64,000 bases of DNA from a virus. The DNA lies in IMG/VR virus record IMGVR_UViG_3300033490_000001; one strand, given 5' to 3'. Numbering within the stretch: position 1 is the first letter of the stretch; each line of letters opens with the position of its first letter. The notes beneath the pieces were generated by a model, which did not search any database, was not told the origin of the DNA, and worked only from the letters and a program-made list of their open reading frames with translations. The position numbers and the translations under genes are program-made. Of this stretch, positions 2,889 through 56,889 are shown piece after piece.

Positions 2889-3890
2889 ATGATCGGAAAG
2901 AAAAATGCAAAAGGAACTCCTCGCCGACGTGCATCGCGATCTAAAAGACCAGATACCCTCAAACTTAAGCTAAAGGGAGGTTGGGAAAATAATGTAGAAG
3001 GGTCTCGCTATCGCCGTCTGGCGTTGTTGACAATTGTTGCTATATGCGCTTTCATCTTCCGCGCGTGCGTCAATTTCCTTTCGGATCAAATTGATAGGTC
3101 TATTGATAAGTCCATGCGAATAATTGACGAAGAAATGATGCAGAAACTGGTTGAGATCTGGTATCGACATGATTTTTCGAGATCGGATGATTTCGACTTC
3201 GGAGGCGTAGGCATCGTTATTGCACCGAACATGGTTCTTACGAGCGCTCGCGCTGCAGGCTGGAAAGGTACTGGTAGTGTGTGGTGTTATGTCGATGAAG
3301 GAAAGCAAAAGTATATCGAGGCTCCAGATTTAAATTACGATTTCATCCCTAAGCCAGTTCAGTGGATCGTGAAATCATTCAGGCATGAGCTTAGCGCATA
3401 TCCAGTTTTGGTTATGCCGAAAGGCTACGGTGTGGCTATACTACGCGTAGAAGGGCTCACGGCTTTACGTTACCCGAGAATCGCTAACACCAGACCAAGC
3501 AAAGACAGTTTTATTCGAGTTCGAGAGGTGTTCTTTGTACCGAGACGTCATGGTGGTGTGGTTGAGAATGAAGAAGTGCATCATTTGCAGGTTGAGCAAC
3601 CAGAAGTTACCTTTGTTCGTTGCTTTCCTTATAGCTGGAACAGGATTGAAATACCAGTCAAAGTAATACTTGCAAGCACTCTACGCGAAACAGAACACTT
3701 CCTGTCTGATATACGAAGCGGCGCTCCAGTTTATAATCAGAACGGTGAACTTTGTGGAGTAGTGCTTGAATCATCAGTTTACGCAGAATCCCTTCATGGC
3801 TTCTACTCAGGGCAAGAGCAGTTGTGTGTCTGGATTGAGCCGCTCAACGAAGTAGAAGATATGATTGAGGCAGTTCTAATTAACAAGTAG
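2889..3890 (+). CDS. Membrane-anchored trypsin-like serine protease fold protein, possibly inactive
   Basis: One TM helix; GVGIVIAPNMVLTSAR (His position is Arg) and RSGAPVYNQNGELCGV, which resemble trypsin motifs. Confidence 0.55.
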   Translation: MIGKKNAKGTPRRRASRSKRPDTLKLKLKGGWENNVEGSRYRRLALLTIVAICAFIFRACVNFLSDQIDRSIDKSMRIIDEEMMQKLVEIWYRHDFSRSDDFDFGGVGIVIAPNMVLTSARAAGWKGTGSVWCYVDEGKQKYIEAPDLNYDFIPKPVQWIVKSFRHELSAYPVLVMPKGYGVAILRVEGLTALRYPRIANTRPSKDSFIRVREVFFVPRRHGGVVENEEVHHLQVEQPEVTFVRCFPYSWNRIEIPVKVILASTLRETEHFLSDIRSGAPVYNQNGELCGVVLESSVYAESLHGFYSGQEQLCVWIEPLNEVEDMIEAVLINK

Positions 3891-42990: not shown

Positions 42991-45336
42991 TTGCCGTTAG
43001 CGCCTATCATTTTCGATTATGTTATATCAAAGAAAATGGACAGGCTTGGTGGGTTTACCGGTGTCGGAGATTTCTCGTTAATGAAACCGATGAAGATTGG
43101 AGGTATGTTAGTTTATCCGAAAGCTGAACTTGCGCGACCCATCTTGCCTACAAACCAATCTGTTCGCTGCGAATTCCAAACTGGCTTTGTGCGTTATCGA
43201 TTCGATCAATCTTTGGGAGCCACTTTAGAATTCGTCCCAAACGCTTCGGGACAGATGTTTTTCGACTTTCGCGTCGGTATCAAGTCCTCATTTTTCACCA
43301 TCAGAGGCAATATTGTCCAGATAGCTTCAGGTGACTCTCTTGTAGTTTCGTTCTATCCAAGAGGGCTGCCAAATCAGGCAGCTTACTCTCAAACTATATC
43401 GTCTACTGGCAATTTCGCTGTAACTTGGTCTCCGGTAGCTGATGGAAATCGTGAGTGGATGTTACGCATAACGGCAATCTTCAATCAATCATCTATTCCA
43501 ATTGTCATCAATGGTCTAAGCATTGAGCGCGATAGATTAGATTACCCTCAACGGGAAGGGATGGTGTGGCAAGGAGTCTGGCTTGGAAGAGTTGAAGATG
43601 CCGGTGTCCTGCCACTTGGGCGAATTTGGTCGGACTGTGAAGGCGGATATGCTGCCAATCGGTTCTATGTCAGCCCGCCAGCCTACGATACCTTAGATTT
43701 CGTTCCGAGAAGATCGGGTCGTGTATTCTGTGATTTCCAGTGCGGTCTCACCAATTTAGCCATTGTCGTTAGAGGAAACATCACTCGAATGGCAGCTGGC
43801 GATAGCATAACAGTGCAGTTTTATCCAAGAGGCTTACCCGATCAGATTGCGTTCTCACAAAACATAAGTTCTACCGGAGAATTTCAAGTTATCTGGACGC
43901 CACCTCGTAGAGGAGAATGGATTGTGAGAGTAGCGGCGAACCTCAATCAAACTGAGTTGCCAATAACAATTACAAATTTCAGAGTTGAACGAGCGACAGG
44001 AGTAGGGACTGGTGGCGGAGGCGGTGTAAGTATCCAAGTAAGCGATCAGATGAGCATCATGTCATCAGAAACAATCTTGGCTCAGTTGTCTTTAAATCAA
44101 GTCGAACATGGAATGATTTCAGGAGCTGAACAAGTTAATCCGAATGTGCTTATGACCGTTGGTGATACAGAAACTCTGCAATCTATTGATTCTGCGATTG
44201 CACAGTTCAGCTTGCTTCCGTCAGAGTTAGCGCAAATCATTGCAAGCGAGGCAGTTCAGCCATCGTTGCAAGCTTCTGTCTCCGAAGTCATGCAGGCTTC
44301 AGTGCAAGATACAGTCCTCTCACAATTACTTGCGTCTCCATCAGAGACCGTCAGAGTTTCGACTTCTGAGTCTGTCATCTCGAGCATTTCTGTAGCAGCT
44401 ACAGACGCGACGCAGGTTCGAACTGATGAATCACAAGTCGTGCAGGTTAGCGTTGGCATTTCGGAAAGTTTGCGAATTTCAACGGCTGAGCAAGCAACTC
44501 CGGTTATCTCGTTTGCATTAGCTGAAAGCCAACAAGTTCTCGCAAGCGAAGGCGTCAATGTCTTTACAGGATTCCAACTACTCGTCAGCGATTCAATGCA
44601 AGTGGCTACATCCGAATCGCAGAGCACGAACATCGCTGCTCAGATCGTCCAACAAGAAGCGATTCAGACTGCCGAAGCACCGACTACTCAGCTTGGCGTT
44701 TCTGTCGCAGACTCAGCAAGCATTTTATCCGCTGAGTCTATTATCCCTACGCTGCAACCGCGTGTTTCAGAAACCGTCCAAGTCCTTGCGTCAGAATCTC
44801 AGTCTGTCGGCATCGCAATCAACTTCACGCAACAAGAAAATGTGAGAGCCTCAGAAACTCCGGTAACTCAGATCGGAATTGTTGTCTCAGACCAAGCGAT
44901 AGCGTCAGCAAGCGAAGTAATTGCGCCAACGATTGTCCCACAAGTATCAGAAACGACGCGCATCAGCGCGTCTGAGCAAACACCTGTCGCAATGCAAATT
45001 GCAGCAGCGACTACAGCGCAAATTAGGGCAACAGAGTCGGTGTTACCGTCAATTCAAGTTGCTGCATCAGATGTTGGCGAAATTGTAGTCTCTGAGGAAA
45101 GTTCTGCTCAGATCGCCAGCTCAATTAGTGAAACGATCCGAATTATAACCACAGAGCAGCCCACCACTCAAGTTCAGTTCAGTGCAGTTGAGTCTGTCAC
45201 GCAGATTGAAGCAGAAATTGCGCCGTTCGTCGGTCTTATCCAGCGACTGATGATCCCAGTGTCAGTTGATCTTCTCAAAGCCGTTGAATTGTCGATTTCC
45301 ATCACGCAAGTGAGTTTAGATCTCGGAATAGATTGA
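42991..45336 (+). CDS. Fibre-like protein: two duplicated beta-sandwich domains, Gly linker and ~20 copies of a 20-aa repeat
   Basis: FYPRGLPxQ...SSTGxFxVxW duplicated; GTGGGGG linker; 20-residue periodicity with acidic residues at positions 7 and 15. Confidence 0.7.
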   Translation: MPLAPIIFDYVISKKMDRLGGFTGVGDFSLMKPMKIGGMLVYPKAELARPILPTNQSVRCEFQTGFVRYRFDQSLGATLEFVPNASGQMFFDFRVGIKSSFFTIRGNIVQIASGDSLVVSFYPRGLPNQAAYSQTISSTGNFAVTWSPVADGNREWMLRITAIFNQSSIPIVINGLSIERDRLDYPQREGMVWQGVWLGRVEDAGVLPLGRIWSDCEGGYAANRFYVSPPAYDTLDFVPRRSGRVFCDFQCGLTNLAIVVRGNITRMAAGDSITVQFYPRGLPDQIAFSQNISSTGEFQVIWTPPRRGEWIVRVAANLNQTELPITITNFRVERATGVGTGGGGGVSIQVSDQMSIMSSETILAQLSLNQVEHGMISGAEQVNPNVLMTVGDTETLQSIDSAIAQFSLLPSELAQIIASEAVQPSLQASVSEVMQASVQDTVLSQLLASPSETVRVSTSESVISSISVAATDATQVRTDESQVVQVSVGISESLRISTAEQATPVISFALAESQQVLASEGVNVFTGFQLLVSDSMQVATSESQSTNIAAQIVQQEAIQTAEAPTTQLGVSVADSASILSAESIIPTLQPRVSETVQVLASESQSVGIAINFTQQENVRASETPVTQIGIVVSDQAIASASEVIAPTIVPQVSETTRISASEQTPVAMQIAAATTAQIRATESVLPSIQVAASDVGEIVVSEESSAQIASSISETIRIITTEQPTTQVQFSAVESVTQIEAEIAPFVGLIQRLMIPVSVDLLKAVELSISITQVSLDLGID

Positions 45337-46952
45337 TGCGAAGGAGTGAGACATGGATGTCATGGCAGCCAGATTTGGAATTTCTGGAATTCCTGAAGAG
45401 CTTCAAACTGCCAAAAGGTAGACCGTTTGTTTTCAAGCCACACCTTCTCGCTCTCTACGCTTACCCACTTCGGCAACGCAAATTTCTTGCGATTCAGAAG
45501 GCATCGCAGCTTGGAATTTCGACATACGCAATTGCGCGAGCGATTTTCGAGTGCATTCATCGCAAGCTCGATGTCATGTATGTTCTGTCATCGTGGCCTG
45601 TTGTCAAGAAGTTCGTTCTGAGCAAAATTGATCCGATATTGTCTGCGATGGGCATTCAGCCCAATCCAGATAGCATAGACACAAAGGGTGTAATCAATGG
45701 GATTATTCACTTCACTGGCGGTCAAAAGGTCACGCAAGCAATCTCAATCACTGCTGACTTTCTAATTCTCGACGAATTTTCGTTTTTAGACCCGACAACG
45801 CGGGATACGTTCGAAGACAGGCTATTGGCATCTGATGAAGGCATGATCCTACAGCTTTCTATTCCGTCAGGAACTGAGAGTGGCATCGAAGCTGTTGTGG
45901 CTGCAACCAAATTGTTTATCTGGCACGTTCAGTGTCGGTCATGCAAGCGAATAGTTCCACTTGATCCGAGGGAATATGAGCGGCTTATTACTCTCGATGA
46001 CAGCGGGAAACAGTGGATTTTCAGGTGCTTAGTTTGCGGCAATCCTCTCGATCCCAATGACCCAAATGCTGTACAGGTTAGGACATCAGGCTTTTACGCT
46101 GCCATGAACCCTGAAGCTGAACGAGATGGTTTTCTGATCTCGACTGTCTATGATCCGGAACGAACCGCTGAATGGTTCAAGCAAATTGAGCAAAAACGCG
46201 ATGCAAGTAGGTTCTATCCGGGTGTCATCGGAATTCCGTATGTTATCTCGATGCGAATCGCATTTTCTGATCTACTTAACCTTGTGCTGCCAGATTCTGA
46301 ATGGAATGAACCCAAATTTGTGCCTATCGTTGCTGGAGTCGACTACGGTAAACTATTCCACATCGCTTACCTAACGCTGACCGATCCGCCTCAAGTGGTT
46401 CGACTATCCGTCGCTGCCGACTGGCAACAAGCTCTCGATGAACTTTCGATCTTTAGACCTGTTTTGACGCTCATAGACGAGCTTCCACCAGGCGACAATT
46501 ACTTGTTACGGGACGAACTTTCGGCAAGAGGTGCTGATGCAAGGCTTGCTCTCGCTAGAGCGCCACACAACATATCTGGCGACTTTCACGTAGACAGAAG
46601 GCGAGTAGTTTACAACAATGTCCAAGCTTTCAACATGCTATTTGGCGCAATCCAAAGCGGTCAGGTTCGGTTCCTTCGAAGCAGGCGGCTTGAAGAATTA
46701 TTTGTGCACATCCTTCGCGCACGGAGAGCAATTGCGTCATTGAAAGGGCGATACTACCACACTTGGGTTATCGGCGAAACTGCTCACTTTCTTGATGCCC
46801 TTAAGATGGCTTGGATAGCGAAACTCATAGCATCTACGAGCCCGAACGCTAACCAGCCGGTAATCAGAGACAGCGATGGAGAGCATTTCGATCGCACAAT
46901 GACTGAAGATGAGTTCATAGAACGAGTGTTGCAATCGCTTGGAATCGGATAG
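45333..46952 (+). CDS. Terminase large subunit (GpA-like)
   Basis: IQKASQLGISTY (Walker A-like), LILDEF, WHVQCRSC...CLVC Zn ribbon, VAGVDYG, HFLDALKMA nuclease motifs. Confidence 0.85.
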   Translation: MMRRSETWMSWQPDLEFLEFLKSFKLPKGRPFVFKPHLLALYAYPLRQRKFLAIQKASQLGISTYAIARAIFECIHRKLDVMYVLSSWPVVKKFVLSKIDPILSAMGIQPNPDSIDTKGVINGIIHFTGGQKVTQAISITADFLILDEFSFLDPTTRDTFEDRLLASDEGMILQLSIPSGTESGIEAVVAATKLFIWHVQCRSCKRIVPLDPREYERLITLDDSGKQWIFRCLVCGNPLDPNDPNAVQVRTSGFYAAMNPEAERDGFLISTVYDPERTAEWFKQIEQKRDASRFYPGVIGIPYVISMRIAFSDLLNLVLPDSEWNEPKFVPIVAGVDYGKLFHIAYLTLTDPPQVVRLSVAADWQQALDELSIFRPVLTLIDELPPGDNYLLRDELSARGADARLALARAPHNISGDFHVDRRRVVYNNVQAFNMLFGAIQSGQVRFLRSRRLEELFVHILRARRAIASLKGRYYHTWVIGETAHFLDALKMAWIAKLIASTSPNANQPVIRDSDGEHFDRTMTEDEFIERVLQSLGIG

Positions 46953-48601: not shown

Positions 48602-50559
48602 ATGACATTCTCGCTATAACTCAGGCAAGTGCAGTCGCGTCGTTTCCTGTGAAACTGACAGTTTCCGACGAAGTCCAAGCGAACAGGCGTCCTGTCACGG
48701 CTGTTTTGTTCAGAGCAGGAATTTTGTCGATCGCACCACCTTTTGGCGCTGATAAGCGAGTTCTGATAGACAGGCAAGCCATTGAAAAGATTGACTTAGA
48801 CAAGCTCGTCGGGTTGCCTTTCCACGCTGATTTCAACTTGTCATCGCACTGGTCTGATATAGGCGGAAGGAAATTGGCTATTGCCGTTGGAGCGATAGTC
48901 GAAGCCGAGAGAAACGACAACTCAATCATCGGTCATGGTTTTCTGTGGGACTTGGATTACCCTGACATCGTTGCAAAGATACGCGAGGCTTCAAATGAAG
49001 ACAAGCTGGCTATCTCTTGGGAGATCATCGATGTCGTCATGAAAGACGAAGGCGATTACTACCGAATCTATTCGTTCACTCCGACTGGGTTTGCGCTACT
49101 TAGGGCTGAGAACGCAGCGTTTAGGGACCTGATGCCAGCATTGGCTGCTATTCAGGACAAGCAACGATACATTCCAAGCGAACAAAAACTTGCAGTGCTT
49201 CTAGATGACCATCGGATACTTCACGCGTATTACGCGACATTGCGTCGTGGCGGAACTGTTGCCGATTGGACCATATCTGAGGTCGTAAAGCTTCACGCTA
49301 AGATCGTCGATGAGATGATGTTACGGCATGTCCACCACAAGCGCGGTGATGGGCTTTCTAGGTCGCTTAACGAAGAAAGCTTATCGCACCAGAACTTTCA
49401 ATTCTTCACCGATGAAATGTTGAACAATGTTGCCGAGATTTGGGCTGTCGATAAGCAGTTCGCGTCGAAAGCGATCAAGAAGGCATCGCGTCACGAGAAA
49501 ATTCAGTTGGATGACAAGCCAGAAGGAATTCCGTTGGGCGTTCCGGTAGCGCTGAGCGTTGATGACAAGATCGTAGCGTGTGGTGCAATTGCCAAGATAG
49601 AAGGCTCTTACTTCCTTGCATTGCCGGAAGTCTACAAGCGCCCAGTTTCTCTGAAGAAAGTTCAAGCATCGATCAGCAATTGGAAGGAGAAGTTGAAGAT
49701 CGCTGCCGAATTAATCGACAAGCTTCCAGATGTCGTTGTCATTCCTGGTTATGTCGCAGTCACAGGTTCGTCATTGCTGACGCCAAAAGCCCGAGACTTG
49801 GACATTTTGATCTGCGACAATGGGTTGTTCTCCAAGCTTTCAAGTTACTTTGGCGATTTCAACCCGCACATCACTCTCACCGATAAGCCAGCTGGATTGG
49901 CGATACCAACCTACGATGTAATGCTGGTCAAGAATGTTCGCAACCCTATCGAGCCCGTAGCGGACGCATTTACAGAGAAACTCGTTGAGCATGTCACTGT
50001 CACATCGGAAGATCCAATCGGTTTAGTTGCTGCAAGGATGCGGTCTCTTGGCGATCTAGATGTCTACCCGCTTGGCGCGTATTACACTGAGACAATTCCG
50101 ACTAAGCGCGGATTGCTGAAAGTCACTGACGAATTAGCGGAAATTTACACTGACGAAGATGAAGTTATCGCTATGACCTACCTTCTTGCCTACAAACCTG
50201 CATCGTGTTTGTCGCTTACCGCAGAAGTCTGGTATTCCGAAGATGCGTCTTGGATGGTTGCTGATTGTCTTTGGTGGAACGCTACCAAAGTGTCTGATTT
50301 ACCGTTCCCTTGGCGCTTAGCTTTTGCCAGAAAGATCGCCGAAGCGTTCATGTTGCCGATGGTTGAGTGGAGGATGCTAATGAACCCTAAGGAAGTCGGC
50401 AGCCTGCGGGCGTTCGTTCTTCAAGACCAGCAGGCTGTGTACAGCGCGCCTAGATTAGTCGTACTCAACAAATCAACAGGAGGTGCAAATTATGGCAGAA
50501 GCGGAAGTGATTGTTCAGTCAGCCCAAGCGAAGGTGGCTGCAATGAAGCGACATGTTAA
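48598..50559 (+). CDS. Prohead protease-like domain fused to a Pol-beta-type nucleotidyltransferase motif and a degenerate ligase-like domain
   Basis: N-terminal FHAD...H...AVGAIVEA...GHGFLW...ISWEI...TGFALL; VAVTGSSL...RDLDILI; C-terminal ADCLWWNATKVSDLPFPWRLAF aligns with the ligase FDVLYLDGEDIHKKPFRERRKLL. Confidence 0.6.
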   Translation: MNDILAITQASAVASFPVKLTVSDEVQANRRPVTAVLFRAGILSIAPPFGADKRVLIDRQAIEKIDLDKLVGLPFHADFNLSSHWSDIGGRKLAIAVGAIVEAERNDNSIIGHGFLWDLDYPDIVAKIREASNEDKLAISWEIIDVVMKDEGDYYRIYSFTPTGFALLRAENAAFRDLMPALAAIQDKQRYIPSEQKLAVLLDDHRILHAYYATLRRGGTVADWTISEVVKLHAKIVDEMMLRHVHHKRGDGLSRSLNEESLSHQNFQFFTDEMLNNVAEIWAVDKQFASKAIKKASRHEKIQLDDKPEGIPLGVPVALSVDDKIVACGAIAKIEGSYFLALPEVYKRPVSLKKVQASISNWKEKLKIAAELIDKLPDVVVIPGYVAVTGSSLLTPKARDLDILICDNGLFSKLSSYFGDFNPHITLTDKPAGLAIPTYDVMLVKNVRNPIEPVADAFTEKLVEHVTVTSEDPIGLVAARMRSLGDLDVYPLGAYYTETIPTKRGLLKVTDELAEIYTDEDEVIAMTYLLAYKPASCLSLTAEVWYSEDASWMVADCLWWNATKVSDLPFPWRLAFARKIAEAFMLPMVEWRMLMNPKEVGSLRAFVLQDQQAVYSAPRLVVLNKSTGGANYGRSGSDCSVSPSEGGCNEATC

Positions 50560-51205
50560 GCAAAAAGACATGAAGGTTTACTTCTCAAACGGTGTCGATC
50601 AGAGGCGTCGAAAATTCATTTCGGCGCTTCTCAAATGGCGTTACGGAATCTTGCAGCGAACCTATCAGCTGGAGGACGCTGACGTCATTATCGCCGCTAC
50701 AGAGTCTGAAGTCCAGTCGTATGCTACCAGTCCTGAGAAGTTGATTGTGTTGCCAGGTTACGATCTAGGACTGCTCCGTCGCGTTGGAGACGAAGTTCTG
50801 CATACAGGTCATACAAACAATGTCCCAACCTTATTAATTCCTCCCGGAGACGATTGGCTTATCAACCAATTTGAGCGAAGGCACTACAGGGTCGACAAGT
50901 GCCTCGCAGTCCAATCTGAACTCAACAAATTCAACAGCGCTGTCACTTCGGAACAACAAAATCAGATAAGGTCTGAAATCAGACGGCTTCTTATGGAATC
51001 GATGGAGAATGTCGATTACGTTGTTGTCTCTGAACGGTGCGGTACGATGCACGTAATTGTAGCTTCGATGGCTTCAGTTTTCGGCAAGCCAGTAATGGCT
51101 GAAGCTTATACTCCAGTTCTATCAGCGATCGTAGATTACTTCGTTGGAAGGCGAGAAGACTTGATTGCTTTGGTAGATGCGATGACGACAATGCGCGGTG
51201 GTTGA
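50483..51205 (+). CDS. Divergent GT-B-like fold protein
   Basis: DADVIIAA and DYVVVSERCG...ASVFGKPVM resemble the GT-B C-terminal signature. Confidence 0.4.
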   Translation: MQIMAEAEVIVQSAQAKVAAMKRHVKQKDMKVYFSNGVDQRRRKFISALLKWRYGILQRTYQLEDADVIIAATESEVQSYATSPEKLIVLPGYDLGLLRRVGDEVLHTGHTNNVPTLLIPPGDDWLINQFERRHYRVDKCLAVQSELNKFNSAVTSEQQNQIRSEIRRLLMESMENVDYVVVSERCGTMHVIVASMASVFGKPVMAEAYTPVLSAIVDYFVGRREDLIALVDAMTTMRGG

Positions 51206-54200
51206 AAATGAGACCTCTTCAGCCATTCAAGCCACTAAAGCCCGCTGAGGGCTATGGCAAGTATGAGTTCGATGACATCGATGAAGTCGTAGCGAACTTT
51301 GCATCCGAGCTTCTCGAAGAAGAAGGCGAACTTGTGGTTGAGCCCAAGTGGGATGGCATCAGGTTAGTCGTCCATTATGATGGTGAGCGTGTCGCCGCTT
51401 ACACCGAAGACAAGCAGCGCGACAGGGCTGAGATACTTCCAGCGCTTGTTGAAGAGATTCAGGAGAAATTCGGAAATCGCTCTGTCATCCTTGACGGCGA
51501 AATTCTTCTAGGTCGGATTGTCGATGGTAAATTCATGCCAGTTATGAGACCTGACATGATGAGAGTCGTCGTCGGCAAAGAGCCGATTACTGACCCGATC
51601 AGGTATGAAGTTTTCGATGTTCTTTACCTTGACGGCGAGGACATCCATAAGAAGCCATTCAGAGAGCGCCGAAAATTGCTTGAAAAACTGTTCGATTCGC
51701 TTGGGACAACAGATGTGTTGAAGCTCACTGAACAGCGCACCGTCAAATCTGTTGAAGAACTTCGCGATGCCATTGAATGGGCTTGTAATTTCATCGGGTC
51801 TGAAGGTGCGATGATAAAGTCGCTTGAGTCAGAATATGAGACCGATGGCAGGACAACTTCATGGGCTAAATACAAGCGATGGAAAGCGATCAAATGCTTG
51901 ATCATCGGAATTAGCAAAGTCTTTCCGCCAAACACTGATCCAGATGAGTGGCGAGAAGCTTTCAAACAGTCTAGGACATATATCTTCAGGTGCGCTGTTT
52001 ATGGGCCTGACGGCGAGACTTTGATTCCGATCGAATCTAAGCGAACACTGACTGAAAGTGACATGAAGCTTCGATATGTCCGAGCTGGCGAAGAGGATCC
52101 AGTTACTGGCAAAGTCGCTTCCAAGAGTGAATGGCGTGGCAGAGACGATCCTAGACTGTGGGAGATGGATGAACGGTTTATTCGTGAACCCGGAGATTTC
52201 GCTCTTGGTCAAACCTACGCAATCAAGGTTGAGGAAGGTGAGCCAAAGCTTGGTGATGTCGTTGAAGTTGCTCCGATAGCGCTGAACTGGTTTGAAGACG
52301 ATGAAGGCTACATGCACCTTACATGGATGCATCCTAAAGCTTTAGGAGTCGGCATAGATGACCAGTCCGAAGTCGCTGGCTGGGATCGAGTGACAGAACT
52401 TGTGTTGGCGTCTGGGCAGGATATGCCGGAAGTTAAAGTTGTCGATGGCAAATTGAAGATCGTCAAACAAGCAGTTGGCGTTCCTTCGATAGTCATCGCT
52501 TCAAAAGACAAGGACGATGAAGAAAGCGATGATGAGGATGAGCCAAAGAAGCAGATGCTACCGCGAATTTTTAAAGAAGCGTTCGGAGTAGGGTTGCCGC
52601 GATCGGTAATCAAAGCATGTGTCGCTGTCTTGCCTGACGATTACAAGACATACATTGAACTGTTCGCTGGTGCTAGCTGTGGTCTGTTACGATGGAAAGA
52701 TCGAAGACCGGATGAAACTGAGATTCTGATTGACATAGACCCATTTGTTGTAGCCTTCCTGAAAGTGCTTAAGTCCGGCGATTGGCGAAAGCTTCGCAGG
52801 TTTCGCTGGAACCCGAATAAGGAGCGATGGCTCGAAATTCGACAGGCGATTAGAGAAGGAGACTACGATGATGCTCCGATACTCAAGAAAGCGTATGCCT
52901 TTGCATACACTACTTTTTACTCCAACAGTAGATATGGACCAACTGGCTCGTATTCTCCAGTAAGGCGATACGAGTGGCGCAAAGAATTAGAGCGTGTCTG
53001 GGAAAGGTGTGCTCGGTGGGAGCAGCGGTTGAAGGGAGTTCGCATATATTGCATGGACGCTTTCGATGCTATGGAAAAATTTGACGCGCATGATACTTTT
53101 TTCTTTGCTGACCCGCCATGGGTAGTACCATCAGTCATCAAGAAAGGCGATAATCCATTCTACACGTTCTCTTGGGACATGGAAGAACACGAACGCTTCA
53201 TTGAAGCGTGCTCTCAATTGAAAGGCAGGATCTTAATCTTGAACCAAGCATTTGCCAAGAAATTCGCCAATCTAGGAAGCAAATGGAATTATCGGGTATT
53301 CACATACGTCACCGGTCATTCTCCATGGACAACAATTCCTGAGAACGTAAAGCGCGATAGGAGTTTAAAAGGCAACTTCTACAGGCACAAGATCTACCTA
53401 ATTGCCAACTACGAACTGCCTGAGATCCCGTCGGCTATCAAGAGAGAAGCTCTCATGCGGTCGGCTGATTCATCTATCGAGCGTTTAGTCGAAGAAGAAG
53501 AAATGACCCATGAAGAGCAAAGGCTTGAAGAGGAGCGCCGTTTTGGCGATCCATACAAAGTCAGGCACGATGTCAAGAACTTCGAGGATGGCTATGAGTT
53601 CGTTTTGATGCGACATTATCGTGGCTTGTGGAGCGATGCGGAGAGAAGCGCGATTGTTAAGCGCTTGAAAGAGTGGAAAGCTGCTGGATCAGAACGCCGT
53701 CGAGAAATCTGGGACGAGCTTGTCAAGGATTTGCATGTCTTACGACTTACAGTAGACATTGACACGCTCATAGAGCGAGCGCAGAAAGCCTCGGATGAAA
53801 GGCGAGATGTCTCCAAAGTTATCGATGACGCATTGTCCGATGAGATGCCGGAAGATGTCGATTCAATTGACGACTTGATCGGCGAAATTGTTAACTTGGC
53901 GAGTCTCCATAGCGATCTCAGGATAGTCAACCCAGCACAGCCCAAGACACAGCTTATCGGTTGGACGTTGACCACGCCGCCAGCTGCAATTCAGTTTCTC
54001 GACGGCGAAATTGTTCCAGTCCTGAGAGACAAGTTCCTTAACTACAAAGAAGGCGATCGAATTGTGGCTATCAGGAAAGCTCGGCAGCCTAAGGTGTGGC
54101 TTACTATTGTGACTCCATCCGAACCAATTCTTTGGGCGCCGCCCGGATCTGCTGGTTCTACTCCTGGAACTTGGGCGATGTTTGAATGGAAAGCTAATGG

Positions 54201-54588
54201 CGTTGTGTGGTTTGGTGTGCAGAGACCGGATTACCATGAAATGTGGCTGAAGTTCGAAGAATACGACGACGATGCTGAGCCATTAGATGGGAAGTGGGTT
54301 GCTAGGTTGCTCAAAGGTGAAGGACCTAAGATCGGGAAGGGCAGTGAGTATTGGCAATTTTGGTATCCTGAAGATCAAGGTCAACTGCCGTATGTTCTTA
54401 CGCACACTCCAGAACAAGCACGCAGCGAATGGAAAGGTAGACGCTACGAGTATGTAATCTTGAACTTGGATGTCGTGCCCATCGTGCTGGAACAGTTTCC
54501 TGAGATCAACGAAATCTTGCAATCAAGCAGGAAAGCACAGAAAATGCTTGAACAACTTGACAAGTGGCTCAAACTCGAGAAAGATTGA
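51202..54588 (+). CDS. Multidomain ATP-dependent DNA ligase + D12-class (Dam-like) N6-adenine MTase + LigD phosphoesterase-like domain
   Basis: VEPKWDGIR, ILDGEI, FDVLYLDG, EGAMIK, WAKYK, OB fold; ELFAG, IDID, FFADPPW; FVLMRH...LHSDLRI. Confidence 0.88.
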   Translation: MKMRPLQPFKPLKPAEGYGKYEFDDIDEVVANFASELLEEEGELVVEPKWDGIRLVVHYDGERVAAYTEDKQRDRAEILPALVEEIQEKFGNRSVILDGEILLGRIVDGKFMPVMRPDMMRVVVGKEPITDPIRYEVFDVLYLDGEDIHKKPFRERRKLLEKLFDSLGTTDVLKLTEQRTVKSVEELRDAIEWACNFIGSEGAMIKSLESEYETDGRTTSWAKYKRWKAIKCLIIGISKVFPPNTDPDEWREAFKQSRTYIFRCAVYGPDGETLIPIESKRTLTESDMKLRYVRAGEEDPVTGKVASKSEWRGRDDPRLWEMDERFIREPGDFALGQTYAIKVEEGEPKLGDVVEVAPIALNWFEDDEGYMHLTWMHPKALGVGIDDQSEVAGWDRVTELVLASGQDMPEVKVVDGKLKIVKQAVGVPSIVIASKDKDDEESDDEDEPKKQMLPRIFKEAFGVGLPRSVIKACVAVLPDDYKTYIELFAGASCGLLRWKDRRPDETEILIDIDPFVVAFLKVLKSGDWRKLRRFRWNPNKERWLEIRQAIREGDYDDAPILKKAYAFAYTTFYSNSRYGPTGSYSPVRRYEWRKELERVWERCARWEQRLKGVRIYCMDAFDAMEKFDAHDTFFFADPPWVVPSVIKKGDNPFYTFSWDMEEHERFIEACSQLKGRILILNQAFAKKFANLGSKWNYRVFTYVTGHSPWTTIPENVKRDRSLKGNFYRHKIYLIANYELPEIPSAIKREALMRSADSSIERLVEEEEMTHEEQRLEEERRFGDPYKVRHDVKNFEDGYEFVLMRHYRGLWSDAERSAIVKRLKEWKAAGSERRREIWDELVKDLHVLRLTVDIDTLIERAQKASDERRDVSKVIDDALSDEMPEDVDSIDDLIGEIVNLASLHSDLRIVNPAQPKTQLIGWTLTTPPAAIQFLDGEIVPVLRDKFLNYKEGDRIVAIRKARQPKVWLTIVTPSEPILWAPPGSAGSTPGTWAMFEWKANGVVWFGVQRPDYHEMWLKFEEYDDDAEPLDGKWVARLLKGEGPKIGKGSEYWQFWYPEDQGQLPYVLTHTPEQARSEWKGRRYEYVILNLDVVPIVLEQFPEINEILQSSRKAQKMLEQLDKWLKLEKD

Positions 54589-54594
54589 GATGTC

Positions 54595-54623
54595 TTGACG
54601 AGCACAGTAGGTTCGGCTATAAT
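54595..54623 (+). promoter_or_regulatory. sigma70-type promoter for the scaffold/capsid genes
   Basis: TTGACG-17 nt-TATAAT, with CGGC before the -10 box. Confidence 0.8.
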
Positions 54624-54730
54624 TATGCGCGAGTGTAACTTAAGATTGAATAAATTAGTCATGGTAGCGATGTCTTATCGCGTGGAAGCTACTGGCAGTT
54701 CAGTTGAGATGATCGAAGGAGGCGACGAAC

Positions 54731-55858
54731 ATGCCGAAAATTCCAGCCGAGGTTGCTGAGGCGCTTCAACTGGAGTCTGCTGCCAATGATTCCGAAGACA
54801 CTATCGTGCAGCGTGTAGTCAAGCGGATTATTTCTATGTTCGGTCAACTTGCGGCATCTGAAGAGAGCAATCAAGTTGGTGAACAGATCCAGTCTAATGA
54901 ATCTACGGACAATGGGACGAATGCACCTTCAGAGAACACATCCTATGGCTACCAGCCAGCCTACGGTTACCCACCTGCTTACGGAGTTCCTGCTAATGTT
55001 GCTGTTAAGCTTCTTCAAGAAGCGCTTGCCGTTTTAGAGAAGGTCGCAGATAGTAACAGCAAAGTGAAAGATGAAGCTGCTGCTGTTGTCGAGAAGATTC
55101 GAGAAGCTCTTGGTATAGCGAGTTCCGGCAAGATGAGCAGCCAGATGGTGGACTGGCTGAGCGAGCTTCGGCTTGCTGTCACTGTCCAGCAAGGAACACA
55201 GCCAGTTTTGCCACCATCCGAAGCAGCTAGTCGGCTGAATGCTGCATGGGAACAGTGGGTTGATCTGGTCAAGTCCGGCGTGAGTGTCGGCGTAGGTCAA
55301 GTATTCGACGTGATGTTTGCATTGAGAGCTGCTGTCCAAATTGCCTATCGTTCACTTCTAGCAGTTCAGGCTAGTGAGAGTTCGGAGAAAGATGAGAAAG
55401 AAACCGACGAAGAACCTGAGAAGGTTGAAGCACAAGTTAATCAAGAGGCAGCACAAGAAGTTGTCGATGCTGACCAAGGTTCAAACGCCACGCAAACACA
55501 GCATGACGGACAAGGCGAGCAGGTTCAAGACGGCTTAGTTGCTCAATCGGCAGAACAAGCAGCTGACCAAGTTGCCAACTCAACGAGCGCTGATTCATCT
55601 GGCGATTCGGATCTGAAGTCAGTAGTGATGCAACTTTTAGAGCAGGTTTCTGCGCTCAATCAGAAGGTCGATACTTTAGAAACACAAATTCGCGAGCGGC
55701 GACGCGTCACTTTGTTCGCGTCGACTCAGCGTGATGAAGGTCCAGAAGACGACTTGATCAAGCGCTGGAGCTCAGCGACTACTGAATCTGAGCGAAAGCG
55801 CATTTTGAGGGAAGCCCAAAAGTTATTGGCAGCTCCGCGTCCATTGGAGCGAGATTGA
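54731..55858 (+). CDS. Capsid scaffolding-like protein
   Basis: Acidic, low-complexity, coiled-coil; immediately upstream of the capsid gene. Confidence 0.65.
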   Translation: MPKIPAEVAEALQLESAANDSEDTIVQRVVKRIISMFGQLAASEESNQVGEQIQSNESTDNGTNAPSENTSYGYQPAYGYPPAYGVPANVAVKLLQEALAVLEKVADSNSKVKDEAAAVVEKIREALGIASSGKMSSQMVDWLSELRLAVTVQQGTQPVLPPSEAASRLNAAWEQWVDLVKSGVSVGVGQVFDVMFALRAAVQIAYRSLLAVQASESSEKDEKETDEEPEKVEAQVNQEAAQEVVDADQGSNATQTQHDGQGEQVQDGLVAQSAEQAADQVANSTSADSSGDSDLKSVVMQLLEQVSALNQKVDTLETQIRERRRVTLFASTQRDEGPEDDLIKRWSSATTESERKRILREAQKLLAAPRPLERD

Positions 55859-55935
55859 AAACACAAATAGCTAACTAGAAGCGACAGTTCTAGCAGTTAC
55901 TCGCATTGAGCAATCTAAGTTGGAGGTGCACAATT

Positions 55936-56889
55936 ATGGCTGATCTCGAAACCAAAGTCGCGAAGGCACTTGCAGCTGCCGACATCACATCGACTACGGA
56001 GTTCTTGTGGACTCCGATTACCTCGGTCGTTCAGGTCATTCTTGACGGCATGTCCGAGCCGATCGCGTTAAAGCGGTTCGATCGGATCAAGGGCGATGGC
56101 GGCGAGTATGTCGCTTTCTATGCAGCCAAGACGCGCTACGGTCGTGCCCGCGCAATCAACTGGCGAACGGCAACGGAGTTTCCGCAGTTCAACTGGGACT
56201 CTGGCGAGCGCGTCCAAGTTCCATACGGTGTCTATGCAATCAAGGCGGTGACTAACAGAGCTCTCGAACTGTTTGGCAAGAACTTGGGCAGCGAGCACGA
56301 GCGCCGAGTCAACGCAGCACTGCGAGACTTGCTCATCACTGTCGAATATGACTGCTTCTTTGGCGTTCACGATCCAGATAACAATCAGTTTGGGCTTGAT
56401 GGCCTTACCGAACTCATCCCATCGGAAAACGTTGTCTCGGCGAGCGGTGCTCTGACGTATGAGGATGTCGTTGAGGCTGCTAGGATTGTCCGCTCACGCG
56501 GTGGAATTCCAAGAGAGCTTTATGCTTCGACTGCTGATATCGAGAATGTCGTTAAGGAACTGGCTAAGACCTACGGTATTGGTCCTGAAGGTCAAGCTAA
56601 GTGGTTGACCGGTGAGCTGCCTATTCCTACTCCATATGGCAACATCAAGCCCATCGTTCACCCACTCTTCCCTTCAACTGGAAACCGCAGCGCATTCTTA
56701 CTTGACCCAGACACCATGACCGATGAAGGTCCAGCTTTGCACTTGCGCTATCTTGGCGATGAAATGCCACTTCGGATCGATTTGCCCGGTTCTGACATGT
56801 CGATCGCTCAAGGCTTCTTGTGGATTGTCGCGCTCGTTGCTCCCGGGCGATACTGGCAGGCACGCATTGCAATTTCCGCTAGCGCATAA
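55936..56889 (+). CDS. Major capsid protein (HK97 fold)
   Basis: GGAGGTG RBS; EYDCFFG...FGLDGLTELI; size and position; followed by a strong hairpin. Confidence 0.8.
   Translation: MADLETKVAKALAAADITSTTEFLWTPITSVVQVILDGMSEPIALKRFDRIKGDGGEYVAFYAAKTRYGRARAINWRTATEFPQFNWDSGERVQVPYGVYAIKAVTNRALELFGKNLGSEHERRVNAALRDLLITVEYDCFFGVHDPDNNQFGLDGLTELIPSENVVSASGALTYEDVVEAARIVRSRGGIPRELYASTADIENVVKELAKTYGIGPEGQAKWLTGELPIPTPYGNIKPIVHPLFPSTGNRSAFLLDPDTMTDEGPALHLRYLGDEMPLRIDLPGSDMSIAQGFLWIVALVAPGRYWQARIAISASA

Follow-up and report, generated by a model that had tools for sequence, protein, structure and literature searches.

A ligase–methyltransferase–phosphoesterase-fold fusion protein in a viral head module as candidate multi-enzyme capsid cargo

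LigD is the bacterial ligase of nonhomologous end joining and works together with Ku. In phage heads, prohead proteases can be fused to head-interior polypeptides, as in lambda C/Nu3 and P2 gpO. Head-packaged, multidomain proteins of phages and conjugative elements, among them some with N6-adenine methylases, are known as polyvalent proteins (Iyer et al. 2017, PMC5512222), and they were proposed to travel with the DNA and to act early in the host (PMC5512222). Here, we analyze a 64,000-nucleotide stretch of viral DNA, the IMG/VR record IMGVR_UViG_3300033490_000001 (the window), and in it a gene of the head module whose predicted product joins an ATP-dependent DNA ligase, a D12-class N6-adenine DNA methyltransferase and a variant of the LigD 3'-phosphoesterase (PE) fold. 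We consider it moderately likely, from comparisons of sequence and gene order, that this fusion protein is multi-enzyme head cargo of the polyvalent type that is loaded into the capsid. Full-text literature searches yielded no account of a phage virion that carries a ligase or a LigD-PE domain, nor of either one being fused to a prohead protease, and we know of no phage for which a DNA ligase or a LigD-type end-healing enzyme has been shown in the particle.

Integrity and domains of the fusion protein

An earlier note on this DNA had described a single open reading frame (ORF) of 1128 aa, and this frame is confirmed: positions 51202-54588 on the plus strand are open over 1128 codons, of which the first is TTG. 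Residue numbers of the fusion protein are counted from nt 51202. A stop codon at 51203-51205 is followed, after a gap of 2 nt, by an ATG at 51208 (TGAAAATG), so that the DNA around the start reads ...GGT GGT TGA AA ATG AGA CCT... and the N-terminus MRPL... Because a homolog that is 93% identical (P0002, 1126 aa) and an ESM Atlas record both start at the position of this ATG, we take ATG 51208 rather than TTG 51202 as the likely true start, giving a product of 1126 aa. The stop codon that lies 2 nt before this ATG is that of the preceding 237-aa gene, an arrangement of translational coupling.

The earlier note had named an assembly chimera as what would speak against its reading, and several lines of evidence point the other way. 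Fourteen full-length homologs with 51-93% identity were found in JGI, ENA, NCBI and Logan assemblies; the stretch is present in hot-spring metagenomes from several studies; and a single 22.7-kb contig is identical across 50400-55000. Moreover, contigs from other hot-spring samples bridge both the ligase/methylase junction (51571-52932) and the methylase/PE junction (52727-53849), in each case with zero indels or joints. Thus, the fusion ORF is not an assembly chimera, and the homologs and junction-spanning contigs rule out an artefact of assembly or gene calling more generally; that the ORF joins separate genes, an explanation for which we found no supporting point, has practically no chance of being correct. 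Conservation, given here and below as mean pairwise identity in the alignment of the 14 full-length homologs, is lowest in the linkers (~42%) and highest in the PE core and the OB-like region (73%). In databases, these proteins are labeled only as "DNA adenine methylase," and the relatives of the fusion protein in IMG/VR are all distant ones.

The ATP-dependent ligase that had been read from a KxDG lysine near 51346 and motifs III-V is borne out by profile matches and by conservation. Pfam DNA_ligase_A_M (PF01068) matches residues 36-225 with an E-value of 5e-30, phrog_114 matches residues 39-237, and among PDB sequences, archaeal ATP-dependent ligases match best (3rr5, E 1e-21), with the LigD ligase domain of mycobacteria next. 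Motif I, K49-W-D-G, begins at nt 51346, and K49, D98-G-E100, F138-D139, E201-G-A-M-x-K206 and K223/K225 are invariant in the 14 homologs. Residues 228-440 have no Pfam or PDB-sequence match, also when a profile of the region is used; their language-model neighbors are all clusters of ligase OB or mRNA-cap C-terminal domains (score 0.90), and the residues after the ligase domain are a candidate OB fold.

An acidic linker precedes the methyltransferase domain. Pfam MethyltransfD12 (PF02086) matches residues 474-676 with 31.1 bits, above its cut-off of 22, and the E-value for phrog_56 is 1.4e-25. The FAG and DPPW motifs on which the earlier note had based a D12-class enzyme (at ~52660 and ~53110) are F488-A-G490 (from nt 52663) and D637-P-P-W640 (from nt 53110). 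Neither motif varies among the 14 homologs, and motif I precedes motif IV, as in Dam-type enzymes. GATC has an observed/expected (O/E) ratio of 0.69 in the window and is neither clearly avoided nor enriched, which gives no hint of the target of the methylase; a single GATC site falls within 28-32 kb of the window. Several 4-base palindromes are strongly avoided in the window, namely GGCC (O/E 0.09; 12 vs. 140 expected), ACGT (0.21) and GTAC (0.32), and this pattern suggests restriction avoidance.

Residues 690-1128 match no Pfam family even at an E-value of 10, and LigD_N (PF13298) is thus unmatched; PDB sequences searched with a profile of the PE region also gave nothing. An AlphaFold2 model of residues 760-1128, built on the 14-sequence alignment, has a mean pLDDT of 84 and a pTM of 0.82. 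In a Foldseek search of the PDB, the seven best matches of this model are LigD-type 3'-phosphoesterases, including 3p43 (E 7e-6), 3p4h, 3n9b, 3n9d, 5dmp and 2lj6, and the rest are noise. An independent structural search against representative chains, VIA, returned 3p4h with a Z-score of 11.4 (117/118 residues, root-mean-square deviation 1.9) and 3n9b with 10.1, and the next chain scored 4.8. An eight-stranded LigD 3'-phosphoesterase beta-barrel fold of the modeled C-terminal domain is supported by both searches. The barrel is interrupted: strand 1 (YEFVLMRHYRG) ends near residue 809 and is followed by ~85 helical residues before LASLHSDLRI. Distant viral relatives without the helical insert read FVLQHHWRG-SSVHWDFRM; in one of them, FVLQHH...HWDFR aligns with the beginning of the LigD_N model (E 3.8e-5), and relatives score only below the LigD_N threshold. 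From the alignment of the insert-less relatives, it follows that H805, H903, D905 and R907 correspond to His42, His48, Asp50 and Arg52 of PaePE. These residues, i.e., the metal triad and the Arg, are invariant across the 14 homologs.

The residues that are essential in PaePE are His42, His48, Asp50, Arg52, His84 and Tyr88; Arg76-His84 form its strand beta4, and Tyr88 lies in the 3-10 helix that comes after (PMC3300020). In the AlphaFold2 model, the strand I954-P963 matches beta4 of PaePE, and a short helix from W966 comes next. By strand register, His84 would be replaced by Gln962, Tyr88 by Trp966 and Glu82 by Ala960. K959-A-R-Q962-P963 and W966 are invariant in the 14 homologs, and Q-P-x-x-W is near-invariant across 45 much more distant representatives, which we read as a constrained, altered PE active site and not as decay. 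The LigD PE-like domain of the earlier note thus stands with respect to the fold, the metal triad and the Arg, but not with respect to the essential His84 and Tyr88 or to a match with the LigD_N model, and because two essential LigD positions differ, we treat 3'-end healing as a hypothesis only. The signature HxRG...HxDxR...KAxQPxxW together with the helical insert defines a distinct clade of the PE superfamily.

Head-module setting and protease-fused relatives

The gene order around the fusion gene is the same in two loci with homologs of 57% (L001) and 51% (L014) identity. In L013, the genes for TerS, TerL, Portal_Mu and MuF are followed by those for a 1346-aa protein, a 316-aa protein and cement, and the 1346-aa protein contains methylase, ligase and UDG domains, a sub-threshold LigD_N match and an XkdF protease. 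L002 encodes a 1731-aa protein (NUDIX, ligase, methylase, a HYDLRL segment and XkdF) followed by a 316-aa protein, cement and capsid. A 902-aa NUDIX-ligase protein follows portal and MuF in L015, a 1258-aa ligase-UDG-PE protein follows TerL and an SPP1-type portal in L016, and L003 and L004 have portal, a large ligase-containing protein and a PE-like ORF, with the capsid gene next in L003. A survey of homologs for a conserved head-module position had been named beforehand as a check, and its outcome is uniform: head genes (portal, MuF, scaffold or capsid) adjoin these proteins in 8/8 judgeable loci of relatives (L001, L002, L003, L004, L013, L014, L015 and L016; L017 and L018 were left out as too short). 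Two of these loci also carry LAGLIDADG matches, in the portal gene of L013 (6796-9102; LAGLIDADG/Hom_end) and in the ligase-containing gene of L004 (3744-7547; LAGLIDADG_3), which suggest inteins or homing endonucleases in head-module genes.

When 1.84 billion cluster representatives were searched with a profile of the PE variant, 123 proteins passed E ≤ 1e-3, and 44 also passed E ≤ 1e-30. Domains were counted by a Pfam scan of the best 45 of these 123 representatives, with the close family of the fusion protein left out. Peptidase_S78_2, the XkdF head-maturation protease, is present in 24 of the 45, DNA_ligase_A_M in 21 and MethyltransfD12 in 11; minor partners are NUDIX (3), UDG (2), metallo-beta-lactamase (2), inorganic pyrophosphatase (1) and C5 methylase (1). 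The usual domain order, assigned with our own hidden Markov models, is (helical)-(NTase-like)-LIG-OB-(MT)-PE-XkdF, with the PE domain directly ahead of the protease, and the commonest fused architecture is PE-XkdF alone (11 representatives). Cultured Pakpunavirus phages have a gene of its own for the XkdF protein, which is annotated as XkdF-like serine protease and takes the protease place in the order terminase, portal, protease, 308-aa protein (possibly scaffold), decoration and capsid. Searches of cultured phages with tblastn returned only separate ligases, methylases or XkdF proteases, with no fusion and no PE variant. In Pseudomonas phage vB_PpuM-NoPa (L020), a 154-aa XkdF-type protease in the protease slot (3003-3467) is labeled "DNA methyltransferase," a label that was probably carried over from methylase-protease fusion proteins.

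In the window, the protease is encoded upstream of the fusion gene as part of a 653-aa protein. Residues 1-290 of this protein were folded (pLDDT 74), and residues 7-170 match the T4 capsid-assembly protease gp21 both with Foldseek (E 8.6e-5) and with VIA (Z 11.4 over 144 aligned residues; next match 7.0). His76 and Ser140 of the protease domain are invariant. The protease is followed by a His-rich helical region (~180-250) and a nucleotidyltransferase (NTase)-like part (~360-595), and both are homologous to the regions ahead of the ligase in the polyproteins of relatives. Therefore, the 653-aa gene and the fusion gene look like one polyprotein split in two, and in this split form the protease would stand at the front and not at the end. 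The NTase-like part has a GS...DLD motif resembling that of Pol-beta-type nucleotidyltransferases, a putative fold assignment. Profile-profile comparison revealed no XkdF domain in the fusion protein or the 653-aa protein, and BLASTP no similarity between the two. The 237-aa protein has a homolog in the same place in L014 and none in L001.

The features of the locus are listed in Table 1. The earlier note had placed the fusion gene between protease and scaffold genes and far from the replication genes. The former is correct in substance, except that the 237-aa gene intervenes and that the scaffold is assigned by position and acidic composition only; the latter holds, with the genes for SNF2, DnaB, AAA_24 and DnaG lying at 5.8-19 kb on the opposite strand. 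No second ligase was found among the ~30 window ORFs scanned, and the window is not the whole genome. The sigma-70-like site just past the stop codon of the fusion gene could boost the high-copy head proteins apart from the low-copy operon upstream. Close to its left end, the window encodes a staphylococcal-nuclease-like protein (1775-2437; SNase, E 9e-14). DnaB/DnaG-type genes, AGGAGG sites and sigma-70-like sites suggest a bacterial host; relatives were binned with Fervidibacteria as well as with archaeal metagenome-assembled genomes.

Table 1. Features of the fusion gene and its surroundings, in window coordinates
Feature	Coordinates	Strand	Basis or remarks
Terminase large subunit	45333..46952	+	phrog_675 E 3.7e-36; GpA_ATPase
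Portal-like protein, 307 aa	47678..48601	+	Language-model lead only
Protease-fusion protein, 653 aa	48598..50559	+	T4 gp21 fold at N-terminus
237-aa protein without family match	50492..51205	+	AGGAGG ribosome-binding site
Ligase-methyltransferase-PE fusion gene	51208..54588	+	ORF, homolog starts; 1126 aa
ATP-dependent DNA ligase nucleotidyltransferase domain	51259..51897	+	Residues ~20-232; Pfam, motifs
OB-like region	51898..52401	+	Residues 233-400; 73% mean pairwise identity
D12-class (alpha-type order) N6-adenine DNA methyltransferase	52564..53436	+	Residues ~455-745
LigD-PE-fold beta-barrel	53584..54381	+	Residues ~795-1060; AlphaFold2 model, Foldseek, VIA
Helical insert of ~85 aa between PE strands beta1 and beta2	53638..53886	+	Residues ~813-895; conservation 45%
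C-terminal helical tail	54382..54585	+	Residues 1061-1128; ends in conserved L-D-x-W-x-x-L-E
Sigma-70-like site TTGACG-17-TATAAT, 11/12	54595..54623	+	In 142-bp gap before scaffold-like gene
Acidic scaffold-like protein, no family match	54731..55858	+	Position and composition only
Major capsid protein	55906..56889	+	SU10_MCP E 1.5e-8
Tail tube and tape-measure-like genes	Downstream of capsid gene	+	Order on plus strand

Proposed capsid loading and its alternatives

A prohead protease is by nature part of the procapsid, and enzymes covalently joined to it would therefore be carried inside. We favor capsid loading because fusion to the protease is recurrent, because these genes have a fixed place in unrelated head modules and because the catalytic motifs are intact. 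The earlier note had proposed a virion-associated end-healing, sealing and methylating protein; the domain identities, the head-module setting and the protease fusions (24/45) speak for this proposal, in which 3'-end healing can no longer be taken as a given. We infer packaging of the window protein, its enzyme activities and the time and place of its action by comparison with relatives. We suggest that the protein would be synthesized together with the low-copy head proteins (terminase, portal and protease), would enter the procapsid with or through the prohead protease and the scaffold core, and would exit from the capsid along with the DNA. Three tasks would await it in the new host: cleaning of damaged 3' ends by the variant PE domain, which would use a metal, sealing of nicks or joining of ends by the ATP-dependent ligase, and methylation of adenines of the incoming genome by the D12 methyltransferase ahead of host restriction. 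ATP-dependent ligases can hold AMP on the motif I lysine, and a first sealing event could therefore occur without fresh ATP. Candidate roles after entry are repair of particle damage, repair of nuclease cuts, end joining or circularization, and anti-restriction methylation; damage repair is attractive, if speculative, in view of the hot-spring habitat and the UDG and NUDIX partners in relatives. Sealing of cos ends is an idea that we do not press: the terminase is too distant from lambda gpA and from SPO1-type terminases to infer cohesive ends.

Several points weigh against capsid loading. The support for packaging of the window protein is comparative and not direct, none of the sequencing runs that contain the stretch is an RNA run, a cargo of 126 kDa is large, and with Gln and Trp at the His84 and Tyr88 positions, the PE chemistry may differ or be lost. 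No motif is common to the tail and the scaffold-like proteins across relatives, and a complex prediction of the tail (residues 1040-1128) with the capsid protein scored 0.00, which is evidence neither way. A C-terminal motif shared with the scaffold-like protein was considered and rejected: in the window, L-E-K/R-D forms the C-terminus of both proteins, a likeness that is missing from the corresponding pairs of L001 and L014. In addition, profile-profile comparison finds no protease domain in the fusion protein itself, and since the scanned ORFs hold no second ligase, the protein could simply be the only ligase of the phage. These last two points also favor an account in which the protein is an unpackaged, late cytoplasmic enzyme of DNA maturation that seals nicks and heals ends of replicated concatemers and, shortly before packaging or in its course, methylates the progeny DNA, and in which its place beside terminase and portal reflects timing and not incorporation. 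Terminase and portal-like genes belong to the operon of this gene, and the cytoplasm supplies the ATP that a ligase needs to turn over. It is also established that nicks in the DNA impede packaging in some phages and that packaging sites can require methylation, P1 being an example. However, such an enzyme leaves unexplained why the PE, ligase and methylase domains are fused to a head-maturation protease in 24/45 relatives and why the position between portal/MuF and scaffold/capsid recurs in unrelated head modules, and we regard it as rather unlikely.

It is also conceivable, though quite improbable in our view, that the main role of the packaged protein is structural or in the core, with a PE-like barrel that serves head assembly and at least one inactive enzyme domain. 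No domain accompanies the XkdF protease more constantly than the PE-like barrel, these two by themselves make up the most frequent fused form (11), and His84 and Tyr88 are replaced. By contrast, all catalytic residues of the ligase and the methylase, as well as the PE metal triad and Arg, are invariant in the family, and the near-invariance of Q-P-x-x-W in the 45 distant representatives fits a working, altered site.

Extending capsid loading beyond this locus, it is possible, if on balance somewhat doubtful, that a DNA-repair and modification kit is routine capsid cargo in tailed phages from hot springs and elsewhere, tethered to or recruited by the protease and ejected with the genome. This kit would comprise a ligase, possibly pre-adenylated, a variant PE end-cleaner and an adenine methylase, to which relatives would add UDG, NUDIX or nucleotidyltransferase domains; its tasks would be to repair DNA damaged by heat or nucleases and to methylate this DNA ahead of host restriction. 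If so, virion cargo would include a general class, so far undescribed, of >100 protein clusters. Packaging would mean that enzymes for break repair and methylation enter the cell with the phage itself, with a bearing on genome survival in the particle in hot springs, on restriction and nuclease defenses, and on genome circularization. A thermostable ligase/PE/methylase fusion could also be a useful enzyme.

Relation to LigD, polyvalent proteins and prohead-protease fusions

The fusion protein resembles LigD in having an ATP-dependent ligase and a PE-fold barrel in one polypeptide and in retaining the Mn-binding His/His/Asp triad and the Arg, and the fold match to LigD and to stand-alone archaeal PE proteins (3n9b, 3p43, 3p4h and 5dmp) is far above background. 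It differs from LigD in lacking the AEP polymerase domain and in the order LIG-MT-PE, in which the methyltransferase is inserted. Its PE barrel, unlike that of LigD, is divided by ~85 aa of helical insert, and the places of His84 and Tyr88 of PaePE would be taken by Gln962 and Trp966. Moreover, the fusion gene is viral and lies in a head module, and no Ku was found among the ~30 ORFs scanned in the window, itself only part of the genome.

With polyvalent proteins, e.g., the Dar proteins of phage P1, the fusion protein shares the form of a large multi-enzyme polypeptide encoded among virion genes, N6-adenine methylase included. Polyvalent proteins are recognized by at least two effector or enzyme domains on one chain and by a setting among the virion genes of a portal-terminase phage; here, three enzyme domains are encoded between the protease and capsid genes. 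The survey of polyvalent proteins mentions "LigD" 0 times and ligase as RNA ligase only (PMC5512222), and the fusion protein brings an ATP-dependent DNA ligase and a PE domain. The anchor also differs: it is MuF or portal in polyvalent proteins and the prohead protease in the relatives of the fusion protein.

This anchor links the family to the known prohead-protease fusions, in that the C-terminal XkdF domain of relatives occupies the canonical protease slot, and the 653-aa protein of the window, with its gp21-fold protease and further domains, resembles T4 gp21 (PDB 5jbl). In contrast to the XkdF-fused relatives, the ligase/methylase/PE protein of the window is a separate polypeptide. In contrast to lambda C/Nu3 and P2 gpO, the passengers in this family are DNA-repair and modification enzymes instead of scaffold.

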